Of a stretch of 64,000 bases of DNA, positions 1,558-36,101 are shown one piece after another. The translations under genes were made by a program, and so were the position numbers. The notes under the pieces were generated by a model. It saw only the letters and a list, made by a program, of their open reading frames with translations. It had not been told where the DNA came from and ran no database searches. The stretch comes from a virus. Lineage: Duplodnaviria; Caudoviricetes. Each line of letters opens with the position of its first letter. Position 1 is the first letter of the stretch. The stretch lies in the IMG/VR virus record IMGVR_UViG_2871846418_000001, positions 7,517 to 71,516 of that record; one strand, given 5' to 3'.

Positions 1558-2383
1558 CGATAGGCTCCAGTCTGCGGATTACGTCTTTTTGATCTTCGGA
1601 GAGGGTGAATTTGGTGCTGACCGTGGCGATCACTGCATCAGCTTTCTTGCTGCCGGACTCAATCATCCTTTGCCAACCAGGCAGATTTGCACTGAACTTA
1701 TCTGCTGGGTAATGTGGCAGCGTCAACGGCGCCTGGGTTTCTTTGTGGGGCGTCACATCCTTGGCGTCGTTGATATCCAGTGTTTTTCCCTCCATTTCTT
1801 CTGCCGTGGGTTGTTGGCCGATTTCGGGCCATGCTTTGCGCAGCGCCTGCGCTTCCGCGCATTTCGCTAACTGGCCGTAAGGGCGTTTTTTCCACATGGC
1901 ATTGGGGGCTGAATTATCACGACCGGCGGTCGCGTAGTTTTCCAGCCAATACTCTTTGGCACTGAACTCGACGATCTTGCCATCGGGCATGCGCTTACAG
2001 ACTGTGTATTTGCACCAGGCGGGGAAGGTGATCTCGACGCCGTTTAGCGTCTTTGTAATATCGTCGCCAAATTCAGGCTCATTTGCACCCGCATAGCTCC
2101 CTGAGCGGTCGGCCTGAATGCGATAAAGGCCGATGCCGGGCATCACTACGTCGCGCCATTCGTTTTTGCCTGATTGGGCATCTTTAACGCTCATCGGTAC
2201 CAAGTGAACCGGCTTCATCAGCGGATCCAACTGACGAGCGATGCAATAGCTGACAGCCATGACAACAGAGTCATCCCGCGCGCCGGGATAAATGGAGTTT
2301 TTCAGCGCGTTCCAGGTAGGCTCATCGATCCCCATGGCCGCGACAGATTGTGGCAAAGTGCCTGTTGTTACCATGTTGCTCAT
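1544..2383 (-). CDS. bet: Phage recombination protein Bet (single-strand annealing)
   Basis: LDPLMKPVHLVP, GIGLYRIQADRSG, WKKRPYGQLAKCAEAQALRKAWP motifs; next to exonuclease. Confidence 0.9.
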   Translation of the reverse strand: MSNMVTTGTLPQSVAAMGIDEPTWNALKNSIYPGARDDSVVMAVSYCIARQLDPLMKPVHLVPMSVKDAQSGKNEWRDVVMPGIGLYRIQADRSGSYAGANEPEFGDDITKTLNGVEITFPAWCKYTVCKRMPDGKIVEFSAKEYWLENYATAGRDNSAPNAMWKKRPYGQLAKCAEAQALRKAWPEIGQQPTAEEMEGKTLDINDAKDVTPHKETQAPLTLPHYPADKFSANLPGWQRMIESGSKKADAVIATVSTKFTLSEDQKDVIRRLEPIDANH

Positions 2384-2538
2384 TGGTCAGCCCTCACGGA
2401 GTTACGGATAGATAAGCGGAAAACGCTGAGAACGACGGCGCAGGCTTTCAACGAATGGCGGCGGTGTTTGAAATGGTGAATATTGTGGCTGCCGATCCGG
2501 TGTTGGTACTGGATCTGTTGGATAGGGTTATGGCTCAT
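2380..2538 (-). CDS. Small hypothetical phage protein (52 aa)
   Basis: GGAG RBS, MSHNPIQQIQYQHRIG..., TGA overlaps bet ATG. Confidence 0.55.
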   Translation of the reverse strand: MSHNPIQQIQYQHRIGSHNIHHFKHRRHSLKACAVVLSVFRLSIRNSVRADQ

Positions 2539-2683
2539 GGTATTCTCCGTGTTGATCGGGGGTGGTTCCCCGGTCAGCTAGCTGGTGGCCTTTGGTCATT
2601 GGCCAGTCCTTATGATTTGCGGTTTGGTCGCCGCATCTCGGGATAGCCCCGCTTGCGGGGCTTTTCTCGTTTATGGAGGAAAT

Positions 2684-3277
2684 ATGGCATTACCTAAAGA
2701 ACATTTAACTGAAAGAGCTATTTATTTAAGAAATGAATTTGAAAAATATTCCATAGAAGAGTTACACAATCTAACAAGTGAAGATTTTAAAATGTTAGGA
2801 ATGTATATTGAGACATATAACTTTATAGATTTCAATGTTCAAAGACTTTATCTTCTTTTAAAAGAAAAGGGCGTAATAATTACGGATAAAAAAGTCAAAG
2901 AGCACAATGCTCATATGCTAAGCAAACTTAAAGAAGTTGTTGATAAATTTTGTGATACTTCAGATGTTGATGTTGCATTGGCGATAATGCAGGAAATTGA
3001 ATTTAGAAAACCTTATCGGAATATCTATGCTCATTGGGCCGCAAAAAGAATCCCTAATGAAGATGCTATTGTATTTCTTTCAAGTGAACCAAGTGAGTAT
3101 CGAAAGAAATTTAAGTGTGAAATACCATTAGGTGGTAGTATCTTTGCAATTATGGATGTTGTTGACATGAAGTGGTTGGTTAATCATTTGCAAGATTTTG
3201 AGCGATGGATAGCAATAAAAATATCCGAGGTTTATAAAGAAATGCATGAAAATAAAAGTATCACTCCAAGTAATTGA
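2684..3277 (+). CDS. AT-rich moron, putative HEPN-like protein (197 aa)
   Basis: GGAGGA RBS before ATG 2684; opposite to early operon; RNIYAH fits the Rx4H motif. Confidence 0.6.
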   Translation: MALPKEHLTERAIYLRNEFEKYSIEELHNLTSEDFKMLGMYIETYNFIDFNVQRLYLLLKEKGVIITDKKVKEHNAHMLSKLKEVVDKFCDTSDVDVALAIMQEIEFRKPYRNIYAHWAAKRIPNEDAIVFLSSEPSEYRKKFKCEIPLGGSIFAIMDVVDMKWLVNHLQDFERWIAIKISEVYKEMHENKSITPSN

Positions 3278-3293
3278 AACAGGGATTTAGTTA

Positions 3294-3599
3294 TTAGTTA
3301 GTCATAAACTCCATCGCTCGTTCGGTTTTCGCGATCCGGGTGAGGATCTCGGTTTGCACCGAGCAAAGGTATTCCTCCATTCCAGGTGACTCTGTCAGTG
3401 CGACCAGAGGCCGCTTGTCCAGCCCCGCGATGTGACAGCGTTCCGCAATCAGTTTTTGGAACACCGATACCCGCAGGCTTTTACGCATACCCTCAACGCG
3501 CGCATCGAGCAGCGCTTTTTCATCAGGATCCGCCGCTAACGTGCGGTCATACTGTTCCAGCGTCTCCTCAACCATCCGCTGATAGTTGTATTCGTGCAT
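3294..3599 (-). CDS. Hypothetical phage protein
   Basis: 101-aa ORF with GGAGGT RBS in leftward operon. Confidence 0.7.
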   Translation of the reverse strand: MHEYNYQRMVEETLEQYDRTLAADPDEKALLDARVEGMRKSLRVSVFQKLIAERCHIAGLDKRPLVALTESPGMEEYLCSVQTEILTRIAKTERAMEFMTN

Positions 3600-3666
3600 T
3601 GCTTACCTCCGGTATCAGTGAACTTACTCATGCGCCAGCAGCCTGGCGCATGGTGAAAGTACGCTG

Positions 3667-3936
3667 TTATTCGTCATCCTTCTTTTCATTGATGCGCTGG
3701 AACGGGAAACGCTCGGTGTCCGCTTTGATATGGCGGTAGAAGTGGGAGCCAACGGAGTCCGCATCTTTGAACGCGGCAAAATCCTCTGCCGTTACATTGC
3801 TGTAGTGGTACAGCGCCGCCGGTTCGCCGCGGGACTTGAAGCGAATTGCCAAGGTATTGGTTGCCGCGTCGTGGCCGATGCTGTGGATCTGGGAAGAGTT
3901 AACAGGTGCCAGGTTGATATTGATTGTCATTGTCAT
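3667..3936 (-). CDS. KTSC domain protein
   Basis: PVNSSQIHSIGHD...LAIRF...YHYSNV...SVGSHFYRHIK pattern. Confidence 0.85.
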   Translation of the reverse strand: MTMTININLAPVNSSQIHSIGHDAATNTLAIRFKSRGEPAALYHYSNVTAEDFAAFKDADSVGSHFYRHIKADTERFPFQRINEKKDDE

Positions 3937-4124
3937 GGTGGTTTCCTTCGGTTGGTGAAAAATCCGGTGGCTGATGTAGGGGCAAAAAAAGCCCCGACGA
4001 GCGGGGCAAGAGGACTACACACAGCAAATAATTCATTCGGCTGTAGCCTGTTGTCGCGTGGACGCCCCGAAGGCACGCCAAGCCACATGCGAATGAATGC
4101 GCCCCATAGGGCGCGTGGTGGGAG

Positions 4125-4292
4125 TTAGTTGCTAACGCTGCACTGGTGTTTTTTGCTAAACACTCGCTTGGCCTGAATTATTTTTGAACCACTCAGCGTT
4201 TTGTAGAAAACCGCGCGGCAGTTGTTGCAAAACAGAACCTTCAGGCCGTGGCCATCAACACCCCATCCGACGTGCTCATTTATCGCTTTCAT
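4125..4292 (-). CDS. Small hypothetical protein with CxxC (55 aa)
   Basis: GGAG RBS, MKAINEHVGWG...FCNNC. Confidence 0.5.
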   Translation of the reverse strand: MKAINEHVGWGVDGHGLKVLFCNNCRAVFYKTLSGSKIIQAKRVFSKKHQCSVSN

Positions 4293-4398
4293 CGGGTAAC
4301 TCCAAATATGAAGAACGCCCAGAAAAGGGCGCAGATAATGACAACAGCTAACAACCATTTGCCTCTTATGCGCATGGGTAGCTCCTGGCTGAGTGGCC

Positions 4399-4887
4399 TT
4401 ATTTATGTGTCAGGGTGGAGAAAAAACTGATACAGATAGCCTTTGCTTTTTGGCACTGTTCAATGTTGAACCAGCCAAAGTGACACTCAGCGACGGGGAT
4501 TTGCATTTGGTCAGCAAGCCAACTGTATGCTCCATTCCGATCCATTGTTTCGAAGCGTTGAGGAACGGTCAGGCCAGATACCTTCAACTTGCGGTTAAAA
4601 AGCCGTTCGAAATATGGCTTACACTCTTTACGAGCTTTTCGAGTTGGCTCATCAGCCAGGGTTCCTAATGGGATGGCAGTAAAAGGATGAAGCCCAACGT
4701 AAGCGGCGCAGGAATCGCACAGGTAAACGTAAGGCCAATCACTAAACTCTCTGCCGCCGTATATTTCCGCGTGTCCGGCGACACGAACAGAACCAGAACA
4801 GAATCTGCAAATTGTCGGGGCGGGCAACGGATTTTTAACCCTGGCTGTTGCTGAGCGGCCCGGGTTATCAGGGGTTTTAATTTCCAT
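4399..4887 (-). CDS. DUF3268-like zinc-finger protein
   Basis: CRFC, YLCDSCAAYVGLHP..PLGTLAD, CHFGWF motifs. Confidence 0.75.
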   Translation of the reverse strand: MEIKTPDNPGRSATARVKNPLPAPTICRFCSGSVRVAGHAEIYGGREFSDWPYVYLCDSCAAYVGLHPFTAIPLGTLADEPTRKARKECKPYFERLFNRKLKVSGLTVPQRFETMDRNGAYSWLADQMQIPVAECHFGWFNIEQCQKAKAICISFFSTLTHK

Positions 4888-4953
4888 GGCAAAACCTTGA
4901 GGCGAAAAAAAAGCCGCAGCGTTAGCTACGGCTCTTAGTGTTAGGGAAGGGGC

Positions 4954-5217
4954 TTAGATGACGCCGCGGGGGATCCGGCTGCTACCGCGCATTTTCTGGC
5001 GACCGGCGGCGCTGATTTGCCCAGGCGCCAGAGGCTCGCTCTCAACAGTGCGGCGTTTGCGTGGCTTCGGTGGTGCTGGCATATCCGGCATCGTTTTACA
5101 GCGGGTGATCACCAACGTTGTTTTTTCGATGCGGTCGCTGCTGCGCTGGATTCGTTCTTGCAATTCACGAGCTCGGCGCAGCCGTGCTGATTTAGCTTTT
5201 GCTTTAATCATGGTCAT
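4954..5217 (-). CDS. N: Early antiterminator, N-like
   Basis: Arg-rich N-terminus (SARLRRARE), C-terminal GRQKMRGSSRIP resembling the end of lambda N; downstream of pL and boxA. Confidence 0.7.
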   Translation of the reverse strand: MTMIKAKAKSARLRRARELQERIQRSSDRIEKTTLVITRCKTMPDMPAPPKPRKRRTVESEPLAPGQISAAGRQKMRGSSRIPRGVI

Positions 5218-5308
5218 TGGTCAGTCCTTATTGTTGGTTTTTCTGGGATATTTAGGCACGCCCAGCCGTGCTATCCTTGCTGTCACCACAACAAGTAAGG
5301 ATACGGTT

Positions 5309-5590
5309 ATGAAAGAGAGATTCGAGGCTACTTGTCCGTTGTGCAACGACGATGGAAGCTATGTTTTCACGGATTCGGATAACTACAAGATTTATGAGTG
5401 TTCAGATTGCGGGGGATTTGAGATCAGCACTCACGCTGAGAAATTAGTTAGGGATATGCCCCAAGAACGTAGAGAGTTTTATTCATCACTCATTGCTGCT
5501 GCACCTGAAGGGCAGGTATTAGAAATATCATTCGAGGTTCTAACAACTGGGAACCGGGTTAATCATCGCTATATCAGTGTGCCTGAGTAG
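5309..5590 (+). CDS. Zn-ribbon hypothetical moron (93 aa)
   Basis: AAGGA RBS; CPLC and CSDC pairs; antisense to pL operon. Confidence 0.65.
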   Translation: MKERFEATCPLCNDDGSYVFTDSDNYKIYECSDCGGFEISTHAEKLVRDMPQERREFYSSLIAAAPEGQVLEISFEVLTTGNRVNHRYISVPE

Positions 5591-5756
5591 TCTTTCCTTC
5601 CTCAATGGTACGAATTGACAGCATCAAACCGTCTTGATTCATCCACTCATTTAACTGCTGGAAGACAAACGTAGGATGCTTTTCCAGCAGTTCCTTCAAC
5701 TGTTGTACTTCGTCTTCTGTCGGTTTCTGTCGCTCATCATTCATCTGTTTTCTCAT
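5574..5756 (-). CDS. Hypothetical protein
   Basis: 60-aa ORF in pL orientation. Confidence 0.4.
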   Translation of the reverse strand: MRKQMNDERQKPTEDEVQQLKELLEKHPTFVFQQLNEWMNQDGLMLSIRTIEEGKTTQAH

Positions 5757-5854
5757 TCAGTTAGTTTGATTTTTAATGATTAGGTAGCCTGCTTTTTTCC
5801 ACATCAGGCGAGGTGGTATCTTGGTGTTTCCACACAACCAAGAAGGTAGAAAAA

Positions 5855-6139
5855 ATGGCCGATTATGTTGCACGAGTTGAGCTTTTCGATGCGGATGGAG
5901 AAAATTATGAAACTCTTCATGAAAGAATGAAGTCGCTTGGCTTTAAGCGTGAAGTAACCTATTCAGATGGTTCGATTTACAACTTGCCAATCGGTACTTA
6001 TCACGGTAGTTCCAATAGTACGAGCGAAGCCTTGAGGGATGCCATAGGGAATATTGGTTCGCCTTTGTCCTCTAAAAAGCCAGCTGTCTTTGTAGCCAAA
6101 ATAGATGGTTGGGCTGCTTACTTGTATTCAACGTCCTGA
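5855..6139 (+). CDS. DUF2622/GhoS-like small protein
   Basis: MADYVARVELFDADGENYETLHERMKSLGF...YNLPIGTY pattern. Confidence 0.7.
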   Translation: MADYVARVELFDADGENYETLHERMKSLGFKREVTYSDGSIYNLPIGTYHGSSNSTSEALRDAIGNIGSPLSSKKPAVFVAKIDGWAAYLYSTS

Positions 6140-6376
6140 TAAGCATTCTCCGATACCATGAGGGGGCGGTGAGTAGCCTCCTTTTTCTAACAACAGAATT
6201 CTCTTAGCCGCATAGAGCAAGGCGCTCTCAACCATGGCAAAGCGTTCATTAGAATCCATTCGGTTAGTCGCAGATGCCATTAAAAATGTATCTTGATAAT
6301 TAGTACTACCATTAGTCACCGTTATGTCAAAACCGCCATCATCTCGCTTGGTAACAATTACTTTTTCGTTTCCCAT
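6128..6376 (-). CDS. Hypothetical protein, first gene of pL transcript
   Basis: 82-aa ORF with AAAGGG RBS. Confidence 0.55.
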   Translation of the reverse strand: MGNEKVIVTKRDDGGFDITVTNGSTNYQDTFLMASATNRMDSNERFAMVESALLYAAKRILLLEKGGYSPPPHGIGECLSGR

Positions 6377-6540
6377 CGTGTAACCCTTTCTTGTTTAGTG
6401 GCCTTAGTCCTGCCGCCCCGAAATGGCAGCGGCAGGGTAAATCCACTTCTGACAGAACAGGCTTAGTGATCGGCGGTCTATCATCCAGCCGAGTTGCACC
6501 GCGACGCGCACCTGGTGGCGCTTGTGTTGCTGTCGCTACC

Positions 6541-6555
6541 TGTTTGTTAAAGAGC
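6541..6555 (-). promoter_or_regulatory. boxA of nutL
   Basis: GCTCTTTAACAAACA on minus strand just after pL. Confidence 0.75.
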
Positions 6556-6576
6556 AATCCCGGTTGGGATGCTTTG

Positions 6577-6628
6577 AATGTAACTTTGGTTTCGGGTTTC
6601 GTCAAGCTGATTTTGACACTTTGGTTTC
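6577..6628 (-). promoter_or_regulatory. pL promoter with two OL operators
   Basis: TTGACG-17-TACATT; 14-bp sites GTAACTTTGGTTTC (6580-6593) and GACACTTTGGTTTC (6615-6628). Confidence 0.75.
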
Positions 6629-6688
6629 GGGCTGGAGGTTAAAAAAACCGACTAACGCCGGTTTTGACATATGGTGTTGTGTCCTGGC

Positions 6689-7309
6689 TTAGGAGCTACA
6701 GTCAGATTTCGTAAACTTATACGTTATGTCATCGTTAGGAAATTTATACGTATAAACAGAAATACCGCCAAACTTGGTAATTAGTACGTTTTGACATAGA
6801 GCCTTATTGAACGCGTCTCGAGCAATTTTAGCGATTTCAGGTTTCTTACCTTCATCTAGTTGAATGTCATTTACAACATATTCATAGTGGAGTTCATGTC
6901 CAGTTATGAACATATTGCTTAAAGTAGTGTATTCATCCAGCCTTTTTGGCAATCCCATCGATTTCTTGACTTTCTCAAGCTCTACAGGGGCATCTTCCCA
7001 AACTTTTGATGTTTGATATTTATCAGTTAGCATCTGCCCTAAAGGTTTTGCAATCACAGCTGCCATTCCAGCAACCACGAGGATTATTATTCTATATCCC
7101 CACTTTTTAATTAATTTGTTAGCTGAATTTTCTTCTGGCGCTTCTATCAAAGCTGCTTTGAATTGCTTCTCAGGTGATGCTGGGGTTGGATTTGACGTTG
7201 TCCATGGATTTTGCTCACCAATTTTTTTTGTCGAGTAGGTAGATGTTCCGCATGCCCTACAGAATTTGTCGTCAACTTCGACTTTGCCACCGCATTTATT
7301 GCAATACAT
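6689..7309 (-). CDS. Zn-ribbon single-TM membrane protein cotranscribed with cI
   Basis: MYCNKCG...FCRACG, one hydrophobic segment; ATG abuts cI stop. Confidence 0.75.
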   Translation of the reverse strand: MYCNKCGGKVEVDDKFCRACGTSTYSTKKIGEQNPWTTSNPTPASPEKQFKAALIEAPEENSANKLIKKWGYRIIILVVAGMAAVIAKPLGQMLTDKYQTSKVWEDAPVELEKVKKSMGLPKRLDEYTTLSNMFITGHELHYEYVVNDIQLDEGKKPEIAKIARDAFNKALCQNVLITKFGGISVYTYKFPNDDITYKFTKSDCSS

Positions 7310-7966
7310 TTATTTATTGCCCTCTCGCAGAATCCATTTCGCATCAACAACCACCCCAACAGGCATGTACTGCCCATCTATTTTAATCATTGAGTAGTTT
7401 TGGTTTAGCGGTCTGAGGTATCGATCACCGGCCTCTTCAACATACTTCCTGAAAAATATTTCTCGAGTTCCAGACTTCTTAAATATAACTAAATTACCAG
7501 AAGTGAGACTGTCAGTAGGATTAACGAGTATCATCATCCCTTCAGGAATCGTTAGTCCTATAGGAGAGGTCATGGCATCGGTTTCTACTTTCAACCAAAA
7601 TGCATCTTTACCTACGTTCAGAGTAGTTTCCAGCCATTTTTCAGCTTTTTCTTTGCCCCCCTCAATCTGCTGCAATACTGACTGCCAATTTAATACTGGG
7701 TGTCTATAGGGCGTGTATTGTGGCTCTGGATCAATATTAGAAGTGCGGCCTTCAATAGTTCCTTTACCCGTTTGAAGCCACTCGGGATCGCATCGCAAAG
7801 CTCGTGCAACATTGAAAAGGGTGTCGCCATTGAAATTTTTGGTCATGCCGAGTTCAGCCTTGCTTATTGCAACGCGTGAGACGCCAGCTTTCTTGGCTAA
7901 TTCTTCTTGAGACATTTGCAAATCAGCTCGCCGTTTACTGACTCGCTCGCCAAGGGTACTGGTCAT
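7310..7966 (-). CDS. cI: CI-like repressor (HTH + degenerate S24 domain)
   Basis: LGERVSKRRADLQMSQEELAKKAGVSRVAISKAE HTH; C-terminal S24-like fold; divergent from cro. Confidence 0.9.
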   Translation of the reverse strand: MTSTLGERVSKRRADLQMSQEELAKKAGVSRVAISKAELGMTKNFNGDTLFNVARALRCDPEWLQTGKGTIEGRTSNIDPEPQYTPYRHPVLNWQSVLQQIEGGKEKAEKWLETTLNVGKDAFWLKVETDAMTSPIGLTIPEGMMILVNPTDSLTSGNLVIFKKSGTREIFFRKYVEEAGDRYLRPLNQNYSMIKIDGQYMPVGVVVDAKWILREGNK

Positions 7967-7989
7967 CTTTTGCTCCAAACCTGAAATCA

Positions 7990-8065
7990 GACACCAAAGT
8001 AACATTAACCTTAGAAACTTTGTTTTCGTTGTGCTATTGATTGGTTTCGACACTTTAGTTACGCT
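7990..8065 (+). promoter_or_regulatory. OR operators and pR
   Basis: GACACCAAAGTAAC (7990), GAAACTTTGTTTTC (8014), GACACTTTAGTTAC (8049) match the OL motif; TTGATT-17-TACGCT at 8037-8065. Confidence 0.72.
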
Positions 8066-8081
8066 TGCCGTGGAGGTAACA

Positions 8082-8324: not shown

Positions 8325-8344
8325 CAGTACATAAGGACTGACCA

Positions 8345-8704
8345 ATGACCACAATTTACCAGCCAGACGACGGAACGGCAGGGGCCACGATAGCCTCAGG
8401 TGTCCGGAAGGAGCTTTTGGGGCGTAAGAAGGTAGGCAAGAACGGCCTGCCGTTCTCAGCTGTCCGTGAAGACCAGATCAAAACCCGTTGGACAGAAAGC
8501 GAAGCGGTGACGATCAAAAGCGCCGCCAGCGCGATGTCGTCAAATCCCGCCGTTGAAACCAACGTTGCCGCGATCCGGGGTTTCCTGGCTATGTTTGCCG
8601 AAGCGCCCGAAATGCTGGTGCACGTTCATAACGAACTGAAGGCCGCCGGCCTGCCAGTTCCCGAATGGCTTCCACTTCCACCCACCAAGGAGCTGTCGAA
8701 ATGA
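8345..8704 (+). CDS. Hypothetical regulator at the cII position
   Basis: 119-aa ORF directly after cro; function inferred from position only. Confidence 0.65.
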   Translation: MTTIYQPDDGTAGATIASGVRKELLGRKKVGKNGLPFSAVREDQIKTRWTESEAVTIKSAASAMSSNPAVETNVAAIRGFLAMFAEAPEMLVHVHNELKAAGLPVPEWLPLPPTKELSK

Positions 8705-9941: not shown

Positions 9942-10425
9942 ACAACTGAACTATGCCATCAGGGCCGCGTCGGGACGAAAGTTTTATCCGTTCCCTACAC
10001 CACCGGACTGGCTGGCCATGGCGAAAGAGCTGTTCGACGCAAGACTGCCGACAGTGGACATCGTGATGGAGGAGTTTGACCGGTACAGCGCAAGGCGGGG
10101 CTATTTCGACAGCCCTGAAGCATTCCGATGGAAAGCGCCGATCCTGTACTGGATTGTCACCGATATGCGCAAGGCGATGCAGCAGTACAACCATGGCGTT
10201 GCTGAGCTGCGAAAAGTGGCAGAGAGGCTGCTTAGGCAGTGGGAAAAAAGACTACAGGACGGGGAGCGAATACCGGATCCAGTCATCAGGCTGGGGCATA
10301 CCGAAATACCGATAGGTGTTGGAAAAGAGCGGGGATTGACCACCCCCGATACAGAGCAAAAAGGCGCGGCAATGCTTCAGTCAATTCGGCTGAGGGTGGC
10401 GCAAGCAAAAATGAATAAGGACTGA
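9670..10425 (+). CDS. Replication protein P-like helicase loader
   Basis: LPTVDIVMEEF, WKAPILYWIVTDMR motifs; follows initiator. Confidence 0.75.
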   Translation: MSDRNVPKQVTAAAMQQIASSRDSPQFRPYKKNTATAAEREAMQGIVLTVILPMYPIHWPAWVSRMNTTALMEAFGSELTRVLLQETINPEQLNYAIRAASGRKFYPFPTPPDWLAMAKELFDARLPTVDIVMEEFDRYSARRGYFDSPEAFRWKAPILYWIVTDMRKAMQQYNHGVAELRKVAERLLRQWEKRLQDGERIPDPVIRLGHTEIPIGVGKERGLTTPDTEQKGAAMLQSIRLRVAQAKMNKD

Positions 10426-10428
10426 CCA

Positions 10429-11571
10429 ATGACTATTAGCATCAAAAACGCACTGATTTACCGCATGTCCCGCGACATTGACTTCTCAGGGATGGAAGAG
10501 AAGCTGGCCGCTTTTGCGTTCACGCCATGCGGCAGCCAGGACATGGCTAAAACCGGATGGGTAGCACCGATTGGTGATGCACTCGTACACACTGCCAACG
10601 GTCAGCATCTGCTGGTGGTCCAGCGTGAAGAGAAAATCCTTCCCCGAGAGGTAATTCAAACCGAGCTGAACAAGAAAGTCGCCAAACTTGAAGCTGAACA
10701 GCATCGGAGACTGAAAAAGTCAGAGAAAGATGCTCAGAAGGATGAAGTGCTGCACTGCCTGATTCCGAGAGCCTTCAGCAAATACCATAAGACACAGATC
10801 TGGATTAACGAAAGGGCCGGGTTAATTGTCGTTGACGCCGCCAGTGCCAAGCGCGCTGAAGATACGCTGGCGCTGCTGCGCAAGAGCCTGGGCTCGCTCC
10901 CGGTGGTACCGCTGACCATGGAAAACCCGATCGAACTGACCGTGACCGAGTGGGTACGCTCCGGGCAGCCGCCAGCGGGATTCATTCTGCAGGATGAGGC
11001 TGAGCTGAAAGCAGTGCTGGAAGAGGGCGGGATCATCCGTTGCAAGAAGCAGGAGCTGGTCGGCGATGAAATAGCGACGAACCTGCAGGCGGGTAAGTTG
11101 GTCACGAAGCTGGTGCTGAGTTGGCAGGATCGAATCGACTTCGCGCTGAGTGATGACGGCGCCCTGAAGAAACTGAGATTCAGCGATGCGCTGCTGGAAC
11201 AAAACGACGATATCGATCGGGAAGATTACGCCCAACGCTTTGACGCGGACTTTATTTTGCTGACCGGCGAGCTGGCTACGTTGATTACTAACCTGATCGC
11301 GGTGCTCGGCGGCGAGTCGAAAGTAACCCCGGAGAACAATGAATCAACGGTTACCGAGGATGAAGAGAGTCTGAGTGACGGACTCTATCCCGAAGCTGCG
11401 CGGTTTGTGCAGGCCAAGGGGCAGGCTTCGATTTCAGGCCTGCAACGTCAATTCCGTATCGGCTATAACCGCGCTGCGCGGCTGATAGAACAGATGGAGG
11501 CTGGTGGCGTACTGTCAGCGCCAGGTGTCGATGGCACACGGGCAGTGTTGATCACAGGGGCTGCGCAATGA
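10429..11571 (+). CDS. rdgC: RdgC with C-terminal FtsK-gamma-like domain
   Basis: [27 protein letters not shown]; C-terminal [25 protein letters not shown]. Confidence 0.92.
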
Positions 11572-13221: not shown

Positions 13222-13539
13222 GTGCGAAAGTCACCAGCATTTAGGAGTAAGGCCCTGCGCGATTCGGCGCGGGGACAATGCTGTACGCTGCAGATCTCAG
13301 GCATATGTAATGGGAACCAGGAAACAACGGTTCTATGCCATCTTCCCTGCAGCACACACGGTATGGGATACAAGAGCGATGACTATTGGGCTGTGTTTGG
13401 ATGCTCAAGTTGTCACGATGTAATCGATGGACGTATACCATACGACTGGCGGCCAGGTGAGCTTCATGAAGTTTTATTCTATGCGTTGCATCGGACAATA
13501 AGCATATGGTTAGAATGTGATTTATTGAAAGTGCAATAA
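13222..13539 (+). CDS. DUF1364/YbcO-like putative nuclease
   Basis: ARGQCCTLQISGICNGNQETTVLCH...GCSSCHDVIDGR. Confidence 0.82.
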   Translation: MRKSPAFRSKALRDSARGQCCTLQISGICNGNQETTVLCHLPCSTHGMGYKSDDYWAVFGCSSCHDVIDGRIPYDWRPGELHEVLFYALHRTISIWLECDLLKVQ

Positions 13540-13679
13540 TGTTTTTTGTTATTATTTCATAGGTGATGAATCAAACCGGTTTATACGCAGAATGATAACT
13601 TGCACCTGGATTCTCAATTGAAACTGCAGTAACTAAAAGGTAATTTATCCTAAAAACACGCAAAGGATAGGGTGTTGGT

Positions 13680-14609
13680 ATGGATAATGAACAGCAGTTT
13701 TTCTGGGTTAACCACAGAAAAACTGAAAAGGTAGAAATTAGTGAAGGGTTCATTTGGGCCCCGAAAACGAAGGTTAATGGTCATAAAAACCAAACTTACT
13801 TAAACCTCACTGAGGTAAGACCTGGTGATCTAATATTTTCATATGCGAACCTTAAATTAGGGGCAGTGGGTAAAGCATTGTCTTCCGCATATGACTTCGA
13901 GAAACCTGATGAGTTTAGAGACTCAGATGAAGTTTGGTTAAGAGACGGCTGGCGGATTGACGTTCAATTTGAAAGGCTGCAAGCACCGATCAGGCCAAAG
14001 CAATTTATTGCACAAATTCAGCCTCTTTTGCCGAAAAAATACTCGCCACTTCAAAAAGACGGTAATGGTAACGAAAGTTGCTATCTGGCCAAATTAGATA
14101 ATGAACTAGGTGAATTATTACTGGAGCTCTGTGACAGGAAAGATTTGGTTTCAATTGACGACTTTACTGAGTTTGAGGAGATTGAGAAAGATATCCTTGA
14201 AATACTGAGTGCAAAAGAATTACCAGAAACAATGAAAGAAGCGCTTGTGAAAGCGCGTATAGGGCAAGGTTTTTTTAGACAGGAAGTTTTAAAACTTTAT
14301 CCGGCATGTCCTGTTACCGGTGTTACAATGCCACAGTTGCTAATAGCAAGTCATATAAAACCCTGGAGAGAGTGTAATAACAAAGAAAGGTTGGATCCCA
14401 ATAATGGAATTATGTTGGCTCCTCATGTTGATGCCTTATTTGATAAGGGATATATAAGCTTCACAAATGATGGGGTTTTAATAGTAAAGGCTGACCGAGA
14501 AGTGGTTAATGCTATGTCAATACTTGGACTTACTGATGTAGATAAAGTAACGATTTCAGAAAGTTCGCATGATTATTTAGATTGGCATAGAGCACACTAT
14601 AAATTTTGA
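13680..14609 (+). CDS. EVE/PUA-like + HNH endonuclease
   Basis: N-terminal FWVN..IWAP..VRPGDLIFSY; C-terminal RIGQGFFR..CPVTG..ASHIKPW..NNGIMLAPHVDALFD. Confidence 0.8.
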   Translation: MDNEQQFFWVNHRKTEKVEISEGFIWAPKTKVNGHKNQTYLNLTEVRPGDLIFSYANLKLGAVGKALSSAYDFEKPDEFRDSDEVWLRDGWRIDVQFERLQAPIRPKQFIAQIQPLLPKKYSPLQKDGNGNESCYLAKLDNELGELLLELCDRKDLVSIDDFTEFEEIEKDILEILSAKELPETMKEALVKARIGQGFFRQEVLKLYPACPVTGVTMPQLLIASHIKPWRECNNKERLDPNNGIMLAPHVDALFDKGYISFTNDGVLIVKADREVVNAMSILGLTDVDKVTISESSHDYLDWHRAHYKF

Positions 14610-14622
14610 GGTCTATATAGGA

Positions 14623-15261
14623 ATGGATAGGTTTGCAATTTTATTCGGTTCTGTCTCTAGAGGGACACATAACTCTAACAGTGATATCGACATATTGCTT
14701 TTGAATATAGATGAAAACCAAGCTTCACAATTTATTGATTTTTCAGCACTTCCTAAACTGGTTGTAAATTATGTTTGCTATAATTCAATCACGTTCAATA
14801 AATATTATTTGAATGGGAGTCTTTTCCTATTCCATGTATTTAATGAAGGAAAGCTAATATATGGGGATGCAAATGAATGGGAGAGAGTGACTAAAGGGTT
14901 TAAGGTTAAAAGAGAATTTGATTCAGAGATAGGAAGAGTTAGGCTTGATGCTTCTGTATATAGCGACATCAATTTGTTCTCCAATTATTACATGTCGGCA
15001 ATGGCGAATTTTTACCCGATAATTAAAAATTTCTGTATATTTAAATTGGCCAGTGATTCTATTTATGAGTTTGATAAAAATACATCACTTAAGATGGTGT
15101 GTAGGAATGCTGAGGAATACAAGAGATTAAGTGTGTTGAGAGGGTGTTATGACGTTTTTTATAGAGGTCTTTCCATAGATAATATCAGAGTGGATCCGGC
15201 TTCCAGAATTGCCGGAGATATATTAACCGAGGCGTTTGAGTTTGTGAGTGACTATGATTAA
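14623..15261 (+). CDS. Pol-beta-superfamily nucleotidyltransferase
   Basis: LFGSVSRG...SDIDILL motif. Confidence 0.82.
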   Translation: MDRFAILFGSVSRGTHNSNSDIDILLLNIDENQASQFIDFSALPKLVVNYVCYNSITFNKYYLNGSLFLFHVFNEGKLIYGDANEWERVTKGFKVKREFDSEIGRVRLDASVYSDINLFSNYYMSAMANFYPIIKNFCIFKLASDSIYEFDKNTSLKMVCRNAEEYKRLSVLRGCYDVFYRGLSIDNIRVDPASRIAGDILTEAFEFVSDYD

Positions 15262-15682
15262 TAATTCTATGTGCAGTGCTTTATCCGCGTTATATCATGA
15301 GCTGGATGGAAGTGATGAACCATTGAAGCATGCAAACGAAATGAAAAAAAGGTTTAAATGTATACTGGATGTATTAATTGAAAGTATTGCTAAGGAATTT
15401 TTAAATGACCGTTTTAACAACTTTGATGAGCTACGTAATAGAATGAGTGAGGTAAAAACATTTGATGGTAATCATGATGTTGTTAAAAAATTAAAAAAGG
15501 TTCTGAGGGGTTATTATATTATTTCGAGGTTGGGGTATACTGTTGATGATGATGAGTTATTGAATTTTTATAATAAAGAAATTTCCAGCCTTGTAATTTC
15601 GATTCTTTCTTTGCAGTGTAATGAGGAAAAACATAAAGTCCTTAAGAACTATTTGCTTTCAAGGAGTGATCATGACAAATGA
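15248..15682 (+). CDS. Hypothetical helical protein
   Basis: 144-aa AT-rich ORF overlapping both neighbours. Confidence 0.7.
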   Translation: MTMINNSMCSALSALYHELDGSDEPLKHANEMKKRFKCILDVLIESIAKEFLNDRFNNFDELRNRMSEVKTFDGNHDVVKKLKKVLRGYYIISRLGYTVDDDELLNFYNKEISSLVISILSLQCNEEKHKVLKNYLLSRSDHDK

Positions 15683-16127
15683 AAATAAAGACAGAAAAGA
15701 TGTGCTATTGAAGGCATGGGAGTTAACACAAAGTATTGCAAAAAATAACTCAGAGTCCGCCTGGAAAGTAAGGATGTGGGGTATTGCAATCTGGTCCGCT
15801 CTAGTATCTTATGCATACCAAAAAAACGAACCAGTGGTTGTTTTAATTGCTATATTTGTTCTTGCCCCTACTTTAATAATAGAATTGCTGATAAGGGTGA
15901 TTGAGTACAAAATGATAAAAAGGTCTCATGAAATTGAGAATTCTATTAATTGTATTCTATTAGAGGACGATTTCGTTCCTCCTGAAAATGGCATTAGAAT
16001 TGACATTTCGGAAACTAAATTAAGTGATTTGGTTAAATTGATTTCCATTAATAGATTGTTGATTTGGAGTCCTTACTTGGTGCTGTTTTCATTTGGATTA
16101 CTGATCTTGGTTAGTATGTTATTTTAA
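15672..16127 (+). CDS. 3-TM membrane protein (151 aa)
   Basis: AAGGAG RBS; three hydrophobic segments. Confidence 0.75.
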   Translation: MTNENKDRKDVLLKAWELTQSIAKNNSESAWKVRMWGIAIWSALVSYAYQKNEPVVVLIAIFVLAPTLIIELLIRVIEYKMIKRSHEIENSINCILLEDDFVPPENGIRIDISETKLSDLVKLISINRLLIWSPYLVLFSFGLLILVSMLF

Positions 16128-16167
16128 TTTTAATTTTAATTTTAATTTTAATTTTAATTTTAATTTT
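16121..16167. repeat. (ATTTTA)7 microsatellite
   Basis: Seven perfect hexamers plus a partial copy. Confidence 0.95.
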
Positions 16168-16289
16168 GAGATATTATTGTATTTTATAAGAAATGGGTAG
16201 ATGTGTTGATGGGATAATGAAAGGAGTGGTTTGTTGGAATCTTGTTTCCAAAGTTTAATCATTAAAATAAAAGAGGAGTAAGTGATAAG

Positions 16290-17150
16290 ATGGGATGTCA
16301 ATTATGGGTGTCTGATGTGACAGGGAAACGAAGAAATGGTACTGATTTCGAGTCATTGAAAAGTATCTTTATAGACTCAGTGACAGCAAAGGCGATTTGT
16401 GAACCTCTACATGCTTGCAGGTTAACAGATCATGCAGCTGATGTCAGAAGAGTTCTTATTGAATTAGACTTTGATAGTGCCGGTGTGATAGATGCTAACG
16501 AAAGGATCATTGGGTACATAAATAGAGATGAACTAAACGATGGGTTAATATCTGAACAAATCCAAGAAATAAAGGTTGGTTTATTAATTTCTGACTCAAC
16601 TCCAATAGCTGACATAGTTCACGAACTTAAGGAAAGAAAAACACTATTCGTAAATTACGGAAGTAACATATCATATATTATAACCAGAGCGGATTTAAAT
16701 AAACCACCTGTAAGGATATTCATTTTTGGGATGATATCTTTGCTTGAGATGCATTTGAACTTTTGGGTTTCGCATTTTTGTCCCGAAGAACATTGGGATA
16801 GATCTATACCGCCAGAACGTATCGCTTTTGCACACCAGAAATTGCAGGAAGCGAAGAAAAATAGTGAAAATACTGAGTTAACCCTTGTTAATTACTTACA
16901 GTTCTGTGATAAAAAAGAACTACTCAGAGATTCACCTGCTTTTATTAGTGAGCTAGCTGTATCGAAAAGTCAATTAAAAGACTATTTGCGCTGGGCTGAG
17001 GGGATCAGAAATGATATTGCGCATAGCCAAAACTCTATATTTACAAATATTGGGATAGAGAGGCTAAGCGATGTGATTATTTTTATTGAGAAGTTTTTGA
17101 ATCGGTCGGAAGACTATTTATCCTACTTGAAAAAAGTCGACGTAACATAG
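16290..17150 (+). CDS. CBS-pair + HEPN-like protein
   Basis: DFDSAGVIDANERIIGYINRDEL and IITRADL CBS-like; RNDIAH Rx4H motif. Confidence 0.72.
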   Translation: MGCQLWVSDVTGKRRNGTDFESLKSIFIDSVTAKAICEPLHACRLTDHAADVRRVLIELDFDSAGVIDANERIIGYINRDELNDGLISEQIQEIKVGLLISDSTPIADIVHELKERKTLFVNYGSNISYIITRADLNKPPVRIFIFGMISLLEMHLNFWVSHFCPEEHWDRSIPPERIAFAHQKLQEAKKNSENTELTLVNYLQFCDKKELLRDSPAFISELAVSKSQLKDYLRWAEGIRNDIAHSQNSIFTNIGIERLSDVIIFIEKFLNRSEDYLSYLKKVDVT

Positions 17151-17188
17151 TGATACATGTGATTTGAGTATTTATAAAGATATGTAGT

Positions 17189-17212
17189 AAAAAGGCCCAG
17201 TACGAACTGGGC
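17189..17212 (-). terminator. Intrinsic terminator closing the peptide array
   Basis: GCCCAGT-TCGT-ACTGGGC stem-loop then CTTTTT on minus strand. Confidence 0.85.
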
Positions 17213-17219
17213 ATTACGT

Positions 17220-17342
17220 TTATTTTCTATTGCCTGCAGGTGGTGGCGGTGGCGGAACTGGTTTTGAATAGTTTGTTGGTGGTGGCGGATTTTTGCCATC
17301 ATATGCCAATCCACTATTAATTGGTTTTGCTTTGTCGGACAT
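17220..17342 (-). CDS. Polyproline peptide 7 (40 aa)
   Basis: GGAGGT RBS; MSDKAKPINSGLAYDGKNPPPPTNYSKPVPPPPPPAGNRK. Confidence 0.85.
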   Translation of the reverse strand: MSDKAKPINSGLAYDGKNPPPPTNYSKPVPPPPPPAGNRK

Positions 17343-17366
17343 ATTTACCTCCAAGCTAAAGTATCA

Positions 17367-17492
17367 TCATTTTTTGTCTTTTGATGGGGGCGGCGGTGGC
17401 GGTGCTGGTTTCTTTGCCTTAATAGGTGGGGGCGGATTTCTGCCTTCAGCGCCAATAATTTGATTTAAAAACGGATCTGTTTTATTAGACAT
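17367..17492 (-). CDS. Polyproline peptide 6 (41 aa)
   Basis: GAGGT RBS; MSNKTDPFLNQIIGAEGRNPPPPIKAKKPAPPPPPPSKDKK. Confidence 0.85.
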   Translation of the reverse strand: MSNKTDPFLNQIIGAEGRNPPPPIKAKKPAPPPPPPSKDKK

Positions 17493-17525
17493 AATTGACC
17501 TCATAAATTATAAAAATATCCAGAC

Positions 17526-17663
17526 TCAGCTTTTCTTCGGTGAAGATGGAGGAGGCGGTGGTGGGGCTGGACGTGTTTGGTTGGATGTAGGAGGTGGGTT
17601 TACTCCATCGTTTAATGGCACCGTCTGACTTGGGTTGCGACTTGATATTGATTTATTGGACAT
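17526..17663 (-). CDS. Polyproline peptide 5 (45 aa)
   Basis: GAGGT RBS; MSNKSISSRNPSQTVPLNDGVNPPPTSNQTRPAPPPPPPSSPKKS. Confidence 0.85.
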   Translation of the reverse strand: MSNKSISSRNPSQTVPLNDGVNPPPTSNQTRPAPPPPPPSSPKKS

Positions 17664-17673
17664 AACGACCTCT

Positions 17674-17787
17674 TTATTTTTTATCTTTCGGGGACGGAGG
17701 CGGTGGGACCGGTTTTGACTGATTTAGTGGTGGCGGTGGATTTCGACCGTTAGTTTGCCAGTCTGGTCTTGATTTGTTATCAGGCAT
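17674..17787 (-). CDS. Polyproline peptide 4 (37 aa)
   Basis: AAGGAG RBS; MPDNKSRPDWQTNGRNPPPPLNQSKPVPPPPSPKDKK. Confidence 0.85.
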   Translation of the reverse strand: MPDNKSRPDWQTNGRNPPPPLNQSKPVPPPPSPKDKK

Positions 17788-17810
17788 ATTATCTCCTTGG
17801 TAAACAGTGT

Positions 17811-17945
17811 TTAGTTACCTTGTTTTTTTGGCGGCGGTGGCGGTGGTGCAGGCCGTACTTGGTTAGATGGAGGTGGCGGGTTTATTCCAAAATTGTCGCT
17901 TTTGACGTTATTTGGAACAACAAAAGTACGTTTTTCATCAGTCAT
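17811..17945 (-). CDS. Polyproline peptide 3 (44 aa)
   Basis: AAGGTG RBS; MTDEKRTFVVPNNVKSDNFGINPPPPSNQVRPAPPPPPPKKQGN. Confidence 0.85.
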   Translation of the reverse strand: MTDEKRTFVVPNNVKSDNFGINPPPPSNQVRPAPPPPPPKKQGN

Positions 17946-17958
17946 TGTGTCACCTTTA

Positions 17959-18093
17959 TTATTTTTTAGCCGGAGGGGGTGGTGGTGGTGCCGGCCTAAC
18001 TTTTGATGGGGGCGGCGACGGGTTTCGACCACCATTTGGTAATCCATCCCTTGAGGGGGTAATGAGTATTGGTTTTGAAGGGATATTCGGCAT
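17959..18093 (-). CDS. Polyproline peptide 2 (44 aa)
   Basis: GAGGAG RBS; MPNIPSKPILITPSRDGLPNGGRNPSPPPSKVRPAPPPPPPAKK. Confidence 0.85.
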   Translation of the reverse strand: MPNIPSKPILITPSRDGLPNGGRNPSPPPSKVRPAPPPPPPAKK

Positions 18094-18095
18094 TT

Positions 18096-18227
18096 CTACT
18101 CCTCAATAGGTTTTTTGGGTGGTGGTGGTGCAGGTGGAGGCGGTGGCCGACGCTGCTGTGGAGGTAACGGATTTTTACCCTTATCAATTTGTTGATACGG
18201 TGGTGGTGTCGGTGCTTTCCTCGACAT
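18096..18227 (-). CDS. Polyproline peptide 1 (43 aa)
   Basis: AGGAG RBS inside upstream gene; MSRKAPTPPPYQQIDKGKNPLPPQQRRPPPPPAPPPPKKPIEE. Confidence 0.82.
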   Translation of the reverse strand: MSRKAPTPPPYQQIDKGKNPLPPQQRRPPPPPAPPPPKKPIEE

Positions 18228-18828
18228 AATCTACTCCTGGAGTGTCTTGTAGGAACTCAACCCATTTAATATCAGAAATATTAAATATCATCAATTTGAC
18301 TGTTGGCATATCCTGATAGCCATCAGGCAGCACCCAGCTTGGATTCATTAAAACGAGGTGCCCCTTGGTTGGATCAGATGGCCATTCGGTCGGCCAGCCA
18401 AAGATTCTTCTCTCATCGTTCAAGTGTATAATTACAAAAGACTCATTACAGTTGAATGTGCCAAACCACTCGCAATGATAGGAAGTCTCTTTTGTGATTT
18501 TCAGCGTCCTAAGTATACTGTGAAGTCGATCATTGTTTGCAAATGTGCTAAATGTGAAACCGAAAATTACAGCAACAGCGTATGACCAAACGAGATGGAC
18601 GTTATTACTCCAAGCGCCAAAAGAATAGTATTTACCTAAGTAAATTAAAGTGAATTTTAATGCAGCCACTCCACCTTGAATAAATACAGTGAATATTAGA
18701 GCTTGGATAATTCGTTCAAATTGGGCTTGTTTCGGATACGAAGTAAAAGCATGGAAGATCCAAGCCGTAACAAACCCCGGAAGTAAATATTTTAGGATGT
18801 TGAATATTTCACTGCTAATTGATTCCAT
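18184..18828 (-). CDS. DUF6338-like membrane protein (3 TM + small beta domain)
   Basis: YLLPGF N-terminal motif, three hydrophobic helices, VIIHLNDERRIFGW...HLVL...IKWVEF. Confidence 0.8.
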   Translation of the reverse strand: MESISSEIFNILKYLLPGFVTAWIFHAFTSYPKQAQFERIIQALIFTVFIQGGVAALKFTLIYLGKYYSFGAWSNNVHLVWSYAVAVIFGFTFSTFANNDRLHSILRTLKITKETSYHCEWFGTFNCNESFVIIHLNDERRIFGWPTEWPSDPTKGHLVLMNPSWVLPDGYQDMPTVKLMIFNISDIKWVEFLQDTPGVDYVEESTDTTTVSTN

Positions 18829-18960
18829 TTGACAATCCTTGAGTCATAGCGGTCGCAGGAAGTCTTTTGTTTCATTTATGGCAATGCATGCAGTACGTGT
18901 TGCGTTTGATGCAATGAACTATACAATCGACTATGCACCATAATATCAGGACTGACCAAT

Positions 18961-19773
18961 ATGACCAACGCAATAGAACAACTCATAAAAATGCACGATC
19001 CGCGCTGTGTAAGCGCAGAGTCAATGAATGTAGGCCGTGGACGCGCTTCCCTGACCAGGGAGCAGATCCTCGGGGCATTAGCTGCAGTACAGCACCGGCA
19101 TTCAGTCGGCCTTGACCTGCTGATGTCCAAGTACCGCAACGATTATAAAGCGGAACAGCGGGTACGTGCAGCGATCAATGAATGGGTGCATCAACGACCA
19201 CATCCTGAACGCGCGACGGCAGCATGTCAGTTAGCCCTCAGTATCGCGCTTGAGCGAAACCTTCCAGCCCAGGTGGCGTACATTGCAGCACTACTTCGCC
19301 GATATGGCCCGCGAACAGCCCAAACGCGGAAAAATATTGAAGCGTTGCAATCCGAGATTAAAGCGCTGGAGAAACGGCGCAGCCAAGCACAGATCACCGA
19401 TATTGAATATCACGAGGTTGGCTTCGAAATTACCGATATAACCAAACGGATTGAGCGGGAGCGGGCAGCACTTCGAGCTTGGTCTGAACAACACGCCGCT
19501 ACAACCAATATATGCCCACGTTGCTCCGGTACCGGCCGCATGATTAGGCAGCATCCTATAGAGTGCGAAGAGTGTGGCGGTAAAGGCAAGATTCCGGCCA
19601 ATATGGAACATCTGCGTAAGTCCATGCGTATCATAGGGGCTGAGGTAGAGCCTGGTGAATGGGCAAGCCGTTATACCGAGTTGGTGAAACAGTGTATGGA
19701 TTGGATGTTCGTCGAAGAATCAAATGCGATTGGTGTACTATCAGATAGAATTGCTATGGAAAAAGGTGAGTAG
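18961..19773 (+). CDS. Q: Late antiterminator Q-like, zinc-finger type
   Basis: CPRCSGTG and CEECGGKG; upstream of pR' and lysis genes. Confidence 0.78.
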   Translation: MTNAIEQLIKMHDPRCVSAESMNVGRGRASLTREQILGALAAVQHRHSVGLDLLMSKYRNDYKAEQRVRAAINEWVHQRPHPERATAACQLALSIALERNLPAQVAYIAALLRRYGPRTAQTRKNIEALQSEIKALEKRRSQAQITDIEYHEVGFEITDITKRIERERAALRAWSEQHAATTNICPRCSGTGRMIRQHPIECEECGGKGKIPANMEHLRKSMRIIGAEVEPGEWASRYTELVKQCMDWMFVEESNAIGVLSDRIAMEKGE

Positions 19774-20400: not shown

Positions 20401-20454
20401 TGCGCTAAATTTCCGAAAGATGCCGGAGTATGCTTAAAGCTACTTCGGCTTTTT
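20383..20454 (+). promoter_or_regulatory. pR'-like late promoter 1 with leader terminator
   Basis: TTGCCA-17-TAAATT then hairpin (20422-20449) and T run. Confidence 0.78.
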
Positions 20455-36078: not shown

Positions 36079-36101
36079 ATTCCATCAATCTGTGACCCCA
36101 T

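Follow-up and report, generated by a model that had tools for sequence, protein, structure and literature searches.

A repeated tag at early gene starts

The stretch of DNA analysed here (hereafter the window) is 64 kb long and comprises bases 7517-71516 of a 71.5-kb IMG/VR provirus record (IMGVR_UViG_2871846418_000001). A CI-like repressor (7310-8053), replication genes and a holin give it a lambdoid layout, and it is a lambdoid provirus of the type found in Pectobacterium, Brenneria, Serratia and Yersinia. Its early region carries a 13-base motif, AGGACTGACCAAT, repeated over gene starts (the start tag). The complement of this motif (the seed) lies in a predicted leader RNA downstream of the late promoter. 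The features discussed are collected in Table 1.

At up to two mismatches, the tag was found seven times in the window. A set of 100 dinucleotide-preserving shuffles gave an expectation of 1.2 copies and a maximum of 5, none of them (0/100) reaching 7. Four copies are exact (5216-5228 on the minus strand; 8334-8346, 10418-10430 and 18948-18960 on the plus strand), and three have a single mismatch (2382-2394, 2598-2610 and 20455-20467, all on the minus strand). All copies are confined to the early region, and no additional one is present in the 7.5 kb by which the provirus record exceeds the window.

An earlier note on this DNA had listed six copies, each in sense orientation over a start codon. 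All six were recovered where it placed them, with the extended strings that it quoted: ATAAGGACTGACCAATGAC occurs three times, and the remaining strings, at the Q-like gene, the recombinase gene and a 23-codon open reading frame (ORF), are given in Table 1. In these sense copies the ATG lies 11 bases past the first base of the motif, or 13 bases at the Q-like gene. The list was incomplete, as the seventh copy (20455-20467), in the opposite orientation and without an ATG, had been overlooked. In RNA letters, the start cassette reads (UA)AGGACUGACCAAUG and consists of the Shine-Dalgarno sequence AGGA, a constant 7-base spacer and the AUG.

The antisense copy lies in a predicted leader RNA

On the plus strand, the antisense copy reads ATTGGTCAGTCCA and agrees with the motif's reverse complement at 12 of 13 positions. 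It is situated just downstream of a sigma-70-like late promoter, in a region for which folding and alignment predict a short structured RNA. The 88-nt fold has an energy of -36.3 kcal/mol (z = -5.35; equally stable shuffles, 0/200) and places the seed, essentially unpaired, between two hairpins. Both hairpins carry U-runs and are terminator-like, with support from covariation. Hairpin 2 and its U5 are followed by the ribosome site of the holin gene (holin at ~20528-20772). In relatives, the TTG of the promoter and GCTAAATT keep a fixed spacing, the sequence between them being variable, and AAAGAT, which we take to be a possible pause element as in lambda, is conserved immediately downstream. 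The Q-like gene, the promoter-like site and the holin follow each other in the order expected of a PR'-tR' leader, and the same order was found in 43 of the 46 related loci described below. Rfam gave no match at gathering score in the whole window, and none near gathering score at 20300-20600. The leader RNA was not found in any isolated phage of the phage collection.

Pairing between seed and tag was assayed by scanning the 21-nt seed stretch for duplexes against 21,322 segments of 36 nt from both strands of the 64 kb. The trivial self-antisense site aside, the six best partners were the six tagged starts, with energies of -23.3 to -24.2 kcal/mol; the next-best partner was at -19.2 kcal/mol, and the mean of the scan was -8.0 kcal/mol (sd 2.7). 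An ungapped scan gave 13-15 contiguous seed pairs at the tagged starts, and 14-15 pairs are reached once the flanking U.G and U-A pairs are counted. The predicted duplex spans the GGA of the Shine-Dalgarno sequence at all tagged starts and includes the AUG at five of the six. We calculate that chance alone would give ~0.008 exact 12-base complements in a sequence of 64 kb.

Table 1. Tagged gene starts, elements of the predicted leader RNA and the second promoter-hairpin module of the window.
Feature	Position	Strand	Remark
RecT-family annealing gene start	tag 2381-2394, gene 1544-2383	-	variant AGGGCTGACCAATG
23-codon ORF (mini-ORF)	tag 2594-2613	-	variant ATAAGGACTGGCCAATGACC
N-like 87-aa gene	tag 5213-5231, gene 4954-5217	-	exact tag ATAAGGACTGACCAATGAC
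119-aa gene	tag 8331-8349, gene 8345-8704	+	exact tag
RdgC + FtsK-gamma gene	tag 10415-10433, gene 10429-11571	+	exact tag
Q-like antiterminator gene	tag 18948-18963, gene 18961-19773	+	exact AGGACTGACCAAT followed by ATG
Late promoter, sigma-70-like, TTGCCA-17-TAAATT	20383-20411	+	consensus match, ~44 bases upstream of seed
Leader RNA, ~82 nt (predicted)	20418-20500	+	from fold and alignment
Hairpin 1	20422-20449	+	followed by U5 at 20450-20454
Seed	20455-20467	+	AUUGGUCAGUCCA, single-stranded in consensus fold
Hairpin 2	20468-20495	+	followed by U5 at 20496-20500
Second module: promoter, AAAGAT, hairpin 1 and U7	36028-36081	+	no seed, no second terminator

Tag and seed are conserved in related proviruses

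Related proviruses were collected by searching IMG/VR with the Q-like protein. This gave 46 loci, with Q proteins 54-87% identical. Together with the window, these loci contain 171 copies of the tag at up to one mismatch. An ATG stands in register in 146 of them (135 at an offset of 11, 5 at 12 and 6 at 13), 20 are antisense copies in the leader RNA, and 5, mostly decayed, belong to neither group. Outside the leader RNA, 146 of 151 copies are thus on an in-register ATG when the window is included, and 140 of 145 in the 46 relatives; conservation in related prophages had been proposed as a check on the motif. The 12 bases upstream of the motif vary freely between genes and loci. At the Q start, the motif or a variant in its distance to the ATG is present in 46/46 loci. 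The tag is carried by ORFs of at least 10 unrelated families: Q (tagged in 40 loci), RdgC (34), a ~120-aa protein (31), a 141-155-aa protein (12) and, more rarely, an 83-aa protein (9), the N-like protein (6), RecT (5) and three small groups.

A leader RNA with a complementary seed was found downstream of Q in 43 of the 46 loci. The seed, of general form AUUGGUCAGUCC(U/A), is single in 17 loci (ATTGGTCAGTCCT) and duplicated in 26 (ATTGGTCAGTTCC-GGTCAGTCCT). The 44 leader copies, including that of the window, represent 21 distinct sequences. In the leader alignment, 99.3% of the cells are paired and changes on both sides occur at 7 of 21 pairs, three of which, in hairpin 2, may partly stem from a one-base deletion in the alignment. 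No shuffle (0/500) reached these pairing values, and slid controls dropped to 25-56% paired. Chance does not account for a complement that is kept in over 40 diverged loci.

The seed was also found on a second backbone. Records G406 and G408 differ from the window in the sequence of the promoter and of hairpin 1, and their Q-like protein shares only 32% identity with the one encoded there. Their leader carries GUCAGUCC together with a UGGUC loop, in the order hairpin and U6, GCAUCUGUCAGUCC(C/U), small hairpin with a (U)UGGUC loop, terminator, holin. G406 has seven sense copies of the tag core on gene starts, and the sole opposite copy is inside the leader RNA. Thus, G406 and G408 keep the anti-core on a different backbone, the other parts of the module having been exchanged. 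G408 displays two tandem leader RNAs ~250 bases apart (L337 ~5668-5773 and 5919-5977; record 25668-25773 and 25919-25977). The anti-core GUCAGUCCU is present in both, as is a hairpin loop UUGGUC(A/G), and the ribosome site of the lysis gene follows the second one only. Among tag-bearing proviruses outside the Q set, the canonical RNA is present in G410, and G409 is a 35% fragment. Finally, a covariance model of the leader RNA detected diverged homologues in L042 and L043, at a larger distance from Q.

The distribution of the tag in hosts was analyzed in five whole genomes: Pectobacterium betavasculorum (L062), Yersinia similis (L058), Serratia quinivorans (L055), Brenneria corticis (L054) and Brenneria alni (L060). 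A count in phage versus host had been suggested as a check on the motif. The exact copies belong to the prophage: 29/29 lie on the same contig as the RNA locus and within 25 kb of it. Outside the prophage, these five genomes contain no exact copy, and the reversed-pattern control also gave 0. In five additional proviruses, the 9-base core occurs 4-8 times each, always in a block of ~10-22 kb that covers the early region and the RNA. Among species-representative genomes, the promoter and seed pattern was detected in 9 species, belonging to Brenneria, Pectobacterium, Serratia and Yersinia. Across the order, 2 of 401 genomes hold at least three copies of the tag, namely the centre genome and G354; single copies occur in 16, below the ~59 genomes with reversed-control hits (our own table count). 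The three clustered tags of G354 (G354:C26:668440-670603), two of which are 455 bases apart as in L020-L027, probably belong to another member of the prophage family.

Invariance at a ribosome-binding site could also reflect recognition by a protein. The tag might be the site of a phage RegA-like repressor or of host CsrA, or simply an optimised initiation region, and the complement a decoy or a coincidence. CsrA recognises GGA motifs, and AAGGA stands in the tag at the usual Shine-Dalgarno distance. The authors who described the start-associated sequences of Cluster K mycobacteriophages, discussed below, left RNA and protein regulators both open in the available part of their paper (PMC3203893). 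In the present case no candidate protein was identified, none having been sought. An optimal site fails to explain the invariance, because the positions beyond AGGA are, by our reading of the sequence, unable to pair with the 3' tail of 16S rRNA. Neither a protein site nor an optimal one accounts for a complement that is kept in so many diverged loci at such a low chance expectation, and we consider this explanation quite improbable.

The reading that we prefer, with a probability of roughly 0.62, is that the late-promoter leader RNA pairs with the Shine-Dalgarno sequence and AUG of the N-like, 119-aa, RdgC, Q-like and RecT genes and would thereby block initiation. The earlier note had suggested a translational regulon with one RNA or protein regulator, and this proposal has gained strong backing from sequence and comparison, in the form of a conserved candidate RNA that carries the complement. 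That such a seed-containing RNA is produced, that it pairs in vivo and that pairing represses translation, and hence the regulation itself, is what we infer from the sequences.

Other promoter-hairpin modules of the same phages

The module formed by promoter, AAAGAT, hairpin 1 and U-run occurs in two or more copies in many of these phages. The second module of the window is located in the structural-gene region, and its stem shows compensatory changes; its presence suggests that the late genes can be entered at a second, Q-dependent point. Additional modules were found in L037 (12904-12985) and, as several types, among the 80 IMG/VR matches listed out of 108, and G412 has four promoter-hairpin modules. 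In the complete records G411 and G412 and in the window, repeated complementary sites are absent for the spacers of the extra modules, in contrast to the 6-8 gene starts per genome matched by the seed spacer. The extra-module spacers were thus rejected as regulators of a second regulon, having zero repeated targets.

These modules provide an internal control for a further explanation, in which the antisense stretch is part of the Q-utilisation site, or a spacer between tandem terminators, and matches the tag by chance. Its position is indeed inside the promoter-proximal region where Q must engage the polymerase, and the flanking hairpins and the promoter are conserved alongside it. However, in the extra modules of these phages the spacer is unrelated or the second terminator is absent; therefore the antisense stretch is not needed for the Q module. 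Moreover, G406 and G408 retain the anti-core next to a different promoter and hairpin 1. A chance match within the Q machinery is accordingly, in our opinion, highly improbable.

RNA-library contigs and mosaic joints

None of the public RNA-library runs contains this prophage. Runs X1, X2, X3 and X5 hold a related mosaic prophage in the form of contigs, which show neither ends, strand, depth nor level; those of 10-20 kb in X1 and X2 may derive from DNA or from induced phage. Since depth, ends and strand cannot be read from contigs, the parts of the window that are not covered carry no information. In X3, a 270-nt contig starts at 20416, no more than 2 bases from where the promoter would place the transcript start, which is a weak hint of transcription from this site. 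It spans both hairpins and enters the holin gene.

In the comparison with the related prophage, pieces of homology begin exactly at 5212 (N-like tag), 18949 (Q tag) and 20402 (late promoter). Thus, conserved elements coincide with mosaic joints. This bears on the other possibility raised in the earlier note, that of microhomology sites for module exchange: the tag would be mainly a recombination linker, used by RecT or by host recombination to swap gene modules, and the antisense copy would be incidental. Apart from the joints at the two tags and the late promoter, such a role is consistent with the sequence just upstream of the Q tag, which in the 46 loci falls into several unrelated groups with tag and Q constant, with the RecT-family protein encoded by the phage, and with record G407, which seems to have acquired tagged genes without the RNA. 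However, the breakpoints at tags are 2 of 11, close to the expectation from gene-boundary mosaicism, with ~6/40 boundaries tagged by our own estimate. A linker needs neither a single orientation nor the fixed ATG register observed in nearly all copies outside the RNA. It also leaves unexplained the single-stranded complement between two terminators, found in 43/46 loci and on the second backbone, and 13 bases are short for recombination by an annealing protein. We therefore regard a primary role as linker as unlikely; recombination may be a secondary consequence of the tag.

Proposed mechanism and points against it

If the leader RNA represses the tagged starts, as we propose, the late promoter just past the Q-like gene would produce a leader made of a hairpin with U-run, the single-stranded seed and a second terminator hairpin with U-run. 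The seed would pair over 13-15 bases with the Shine-Dalgarno sequence and AUG of each tagged mRNA and prevent binding of the 30S subunit. A single RNA would in this way repress the whole tagged set in trans, Q included. Q would determine whether the RNA's own transcript terminates, and the RNA would in turn repress Q. Because the terminator-like hairpin 1 precedes the seed, the seed-bearing RNA would have to arise by leak past hairpin 1 or through Q-modified polymerase. Two timings can be envisaged. In the lysogen, a ~82-nt RNA ending at hairpin 2 might damp leaky translation of N and Q. After Q has acted, abundant seed on the leader of the late mRNA might shut off early translation, with negative feedback on Q. 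Guarding the lysogen and shutting off the early genes late would be compatible functions.

Several observations weigh against this mechanism. About 40 nt into the predicted transcript, upstream of the seed, hairpin 1 and its U-run resemble a strong terminator, and most transcripts in the lysogen may lack the seed. Some genomes have tags and no RNA: G407 (100% complete according to CheckV) contains two exact tags and one variant without the RNA or the anti-core, and L050, in which Q is truncated, has tags without the RNA within its 20.8-kb locus. L042 and L043 keep three tags each, and their seeds are degenerate, with at most 9 contiguous pairs; that of L043 forms 13/14 pairs with one mismatch. 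No matching tag changes accompany the divergent seeds of these two loci.

The variants of tag and seed are also ambiguous. Most tag variants retain pairing with the seed through G.U (A4G, C10U, A1G and A8G), the A-to-G change in the RecT tag of the window still allows a G.U pair, and seed C-to-U variants in L015, L027 and L051 are likewise G.U-compatible. Yet the tag variant G7A (L038, L039 and L044) and some seed variants lose a pair, and the excess of G.U-compatible changes is not significant given transition bias, by our own estimate. As tag and seed are nearly invariant, compensatory proof of pairing is not available. The link between tag and RNA appears strong but not absolute, as expected for mosaic phages.

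Comparison with known systems

The comparisons below apply to the available parts of the papers cited. The closest likeness is with StxS, a short PR'-tR' RNA of Stx phages, which binds Hfq and represses stx1B at its ribosome-binding site; its sequence becomes part of the late mRNA after Q acts (PMC7547250). The RNA described here is similarly predicted to be a late-promoter RNA made just past Q, and it may end at a terminator that Q overrides. StxS arises by processing of a 258-nt transcript and, apart from host rpoS, has a single phage target (PMC7547250). In contrast, the present RNA is predicted to be ~82-105 nt long, with its seed between two terminators, and to target 4-8 early genes of the phage, Q itself included, through their common cassette. 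The predicted duplexes are at ~-24 kcal/mol, compared with -11.6 quoted for StxS (PMC7547250). No full-tag host target was found in the five host genomes, and the two RNAs have no sequence or Rfam relationship.

A cis-encoded antisense RNA lies opposite its target: sar, OOP and aQ each have a single target and are transcribed from its other strand. The seed described here is 1.5-18 kb away from the tagged starts, and no tagged gene lies opposite it. c4 acts on repeats in its own operon, whereas the targets proposed here are on several transcripts of both early operons. P1/P7 c4, P22 sar, lambda OOP and aQ are all short phage antisense RNAs acting on phage mRNAs, and c4 and sar resemble the present case in pairing around the ribosome-binding site and in restraining lytic or anti-repressor functions (PMC12197685). 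In E. coli rrn operons, small RNAs (sRNAs) are made between dual terminators by read-through (PMC8144298). Those RNAs belong to a host ribosomal operon and not to a phage late leader, and no repeated target cassette is described in the available text.

A 2025 review of phage small RNAs includes OOP, aQ, sar, c4, StxS, PreS, 24B_1, VpdS and DicF, and none of these, as presented in its available part, is a late-leader RNA aimed at a repeated early-gene start cassette (PMC12197685). Our literature search found no description of this tag or RNA. A preprint on a Pas sRNA was considered as a prior description and rejected, as its available part concerns other E. coli RNAs. The putative function would thus amount to a late-leader sRNA and antisense translational control applied to a multi-gene start cassette.

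For the tag itself, the closest likeness is with the start-associated sequences (SAS) of Cluster K mycobacteriophages, a 13-base asymmetric repeat located 3-7 bases before the ATG (PMC3203893). Tag and SAS have in common a Shine-Dalgarno core, a single orientation, association with non-structural genes of unrelated families, absence from the host genome, conservation beyond rRNA pairing, and a single opposite copy away from a gene start. However, the SAS consensus GGGATAGGAGCCC is not matched by the tag, the GGA core alone being common. The two also differ in host phylum, in phage type and in copy number (11-19 per genome for SAS, 4-8 here), and SAS are often accompanied by inverted repeats called ESAS. 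The function of SAS was still called ill-defined or unknown in 2024 and 2025, and no RNA regulator is proposed in the available parts of those papers (PMC11373665, PMC12699233).

The right half of the Cluster K phage Anaya (JF704106, record 30000-60835) was scanned for SAS. Fifteen copies there are in sense orientation, and a single reverse copy (record 59870-59882; L348 29871-29883) lies in the 385-base gap between gp96 and gp97. On the plus strand, the reverse copy supplies the loop, CCUCCUAUCC, of a hairpin with the stem GCGCGG/CCGCGC; the stretch around it is structured (z = -3.99) and matches 138 mycobacteriophage records. Among 8 aligned Cluster K phages, the loop is identical in 6, and of the 43 predicted pairs, 9 show both-side changes. 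Amohnition has a different loop (CCUCCUUCCCC), and the 17 SAS that it carries at up to two mismatches are canonical, so that no clean covariation is seen. This intergenic hairpin may be an anti-SAS RNA, which we mention as a lead and not as a finding. That one start cassette and a single anti-cassette RNA constitute a general design of temperate phages, arisen repeatedly and also explaining the SAS of Cluster K, is a tentative and rather doubtful extension.

If the mechanism proposed here is correct, the lambdoid late-promoter RNA, seen as a by-product, would be the master translational regulator of the early programme in this phage family. One seed would control the N-like gene, Q, recombination and other early genes, with feedback involving the antiterminator of its own termination. 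It would be a compact and portable post-transcriptional switch, a natural sRNA regulon internal to a phage, with a tag that looks engineered. It would also provide a concrete hypothesis for the start-associated sequences of mycobacteriophages, unexplained since 2011. For annotation, the rule would be to seek the single reverse copy of any start-associated repeat.

Tagged genes and other features of the window

The product of the gene at 10429-11571 matches RdgC (3.2e-109) and an FtsK-gamma domain (3e-23) in Pfam. The Q-like protein matches TIGR02642 (7.1e-86) and PHROG 127, 'anti-termination protein Q-like' (4.7e-13), and its gene directly precedes the promoter-terminator module and the holin. 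The 87-aa gene encodes an arginine-rich N-terminus and occupies the position of N, as first gene of the leftward operon; the 119-aa gene is the second of the rightward early operon. No family match was found in PHROG, Pfam or NCBIfam for the 87-aa, 119-aa and 83-aa proteins. The 144-aa protein gave no match in these collections either, with a sub-threshold NCBIfam hit only (E 0.004, 15.8 bits, cut-off 300). Among the gene names used initially, rdgC and Q can be kept, the latter as Q-like. The name bet is right by function and not by family, because the product is a RecT-family single-strand annealing protein. The names N and cII-position are positional, as both proteins match no family. The tag of the 23-codon ORF is located 216 bases upstream of the RecT start, and relatives have a decayed tag without ATG at the same relative place.

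A nucleotide search of the early region against isolated phages gave a single match, of 412 bases, methylase-like and 76% identical, and no close sequenced phage. Between 14000 and 18000, a low-GC block (0.34-0.38, compared with ~0.52 around it) displays a strong positive GC skew. It is placed in the early right operon, with replication and nin-type genes on one side and Q on the other, and probably consists of imported cargo genes.

Finally, a 207-aa ORF (19777-20400) lies between the Q-like gene and the late promoter. Its product has no Pfam or NCBIfam family match and belongs to PHROG 8083, of unknown function. The slot between Q and the promoter is variable, since in relatives the promoter is found 90 to 800 bases past Q.

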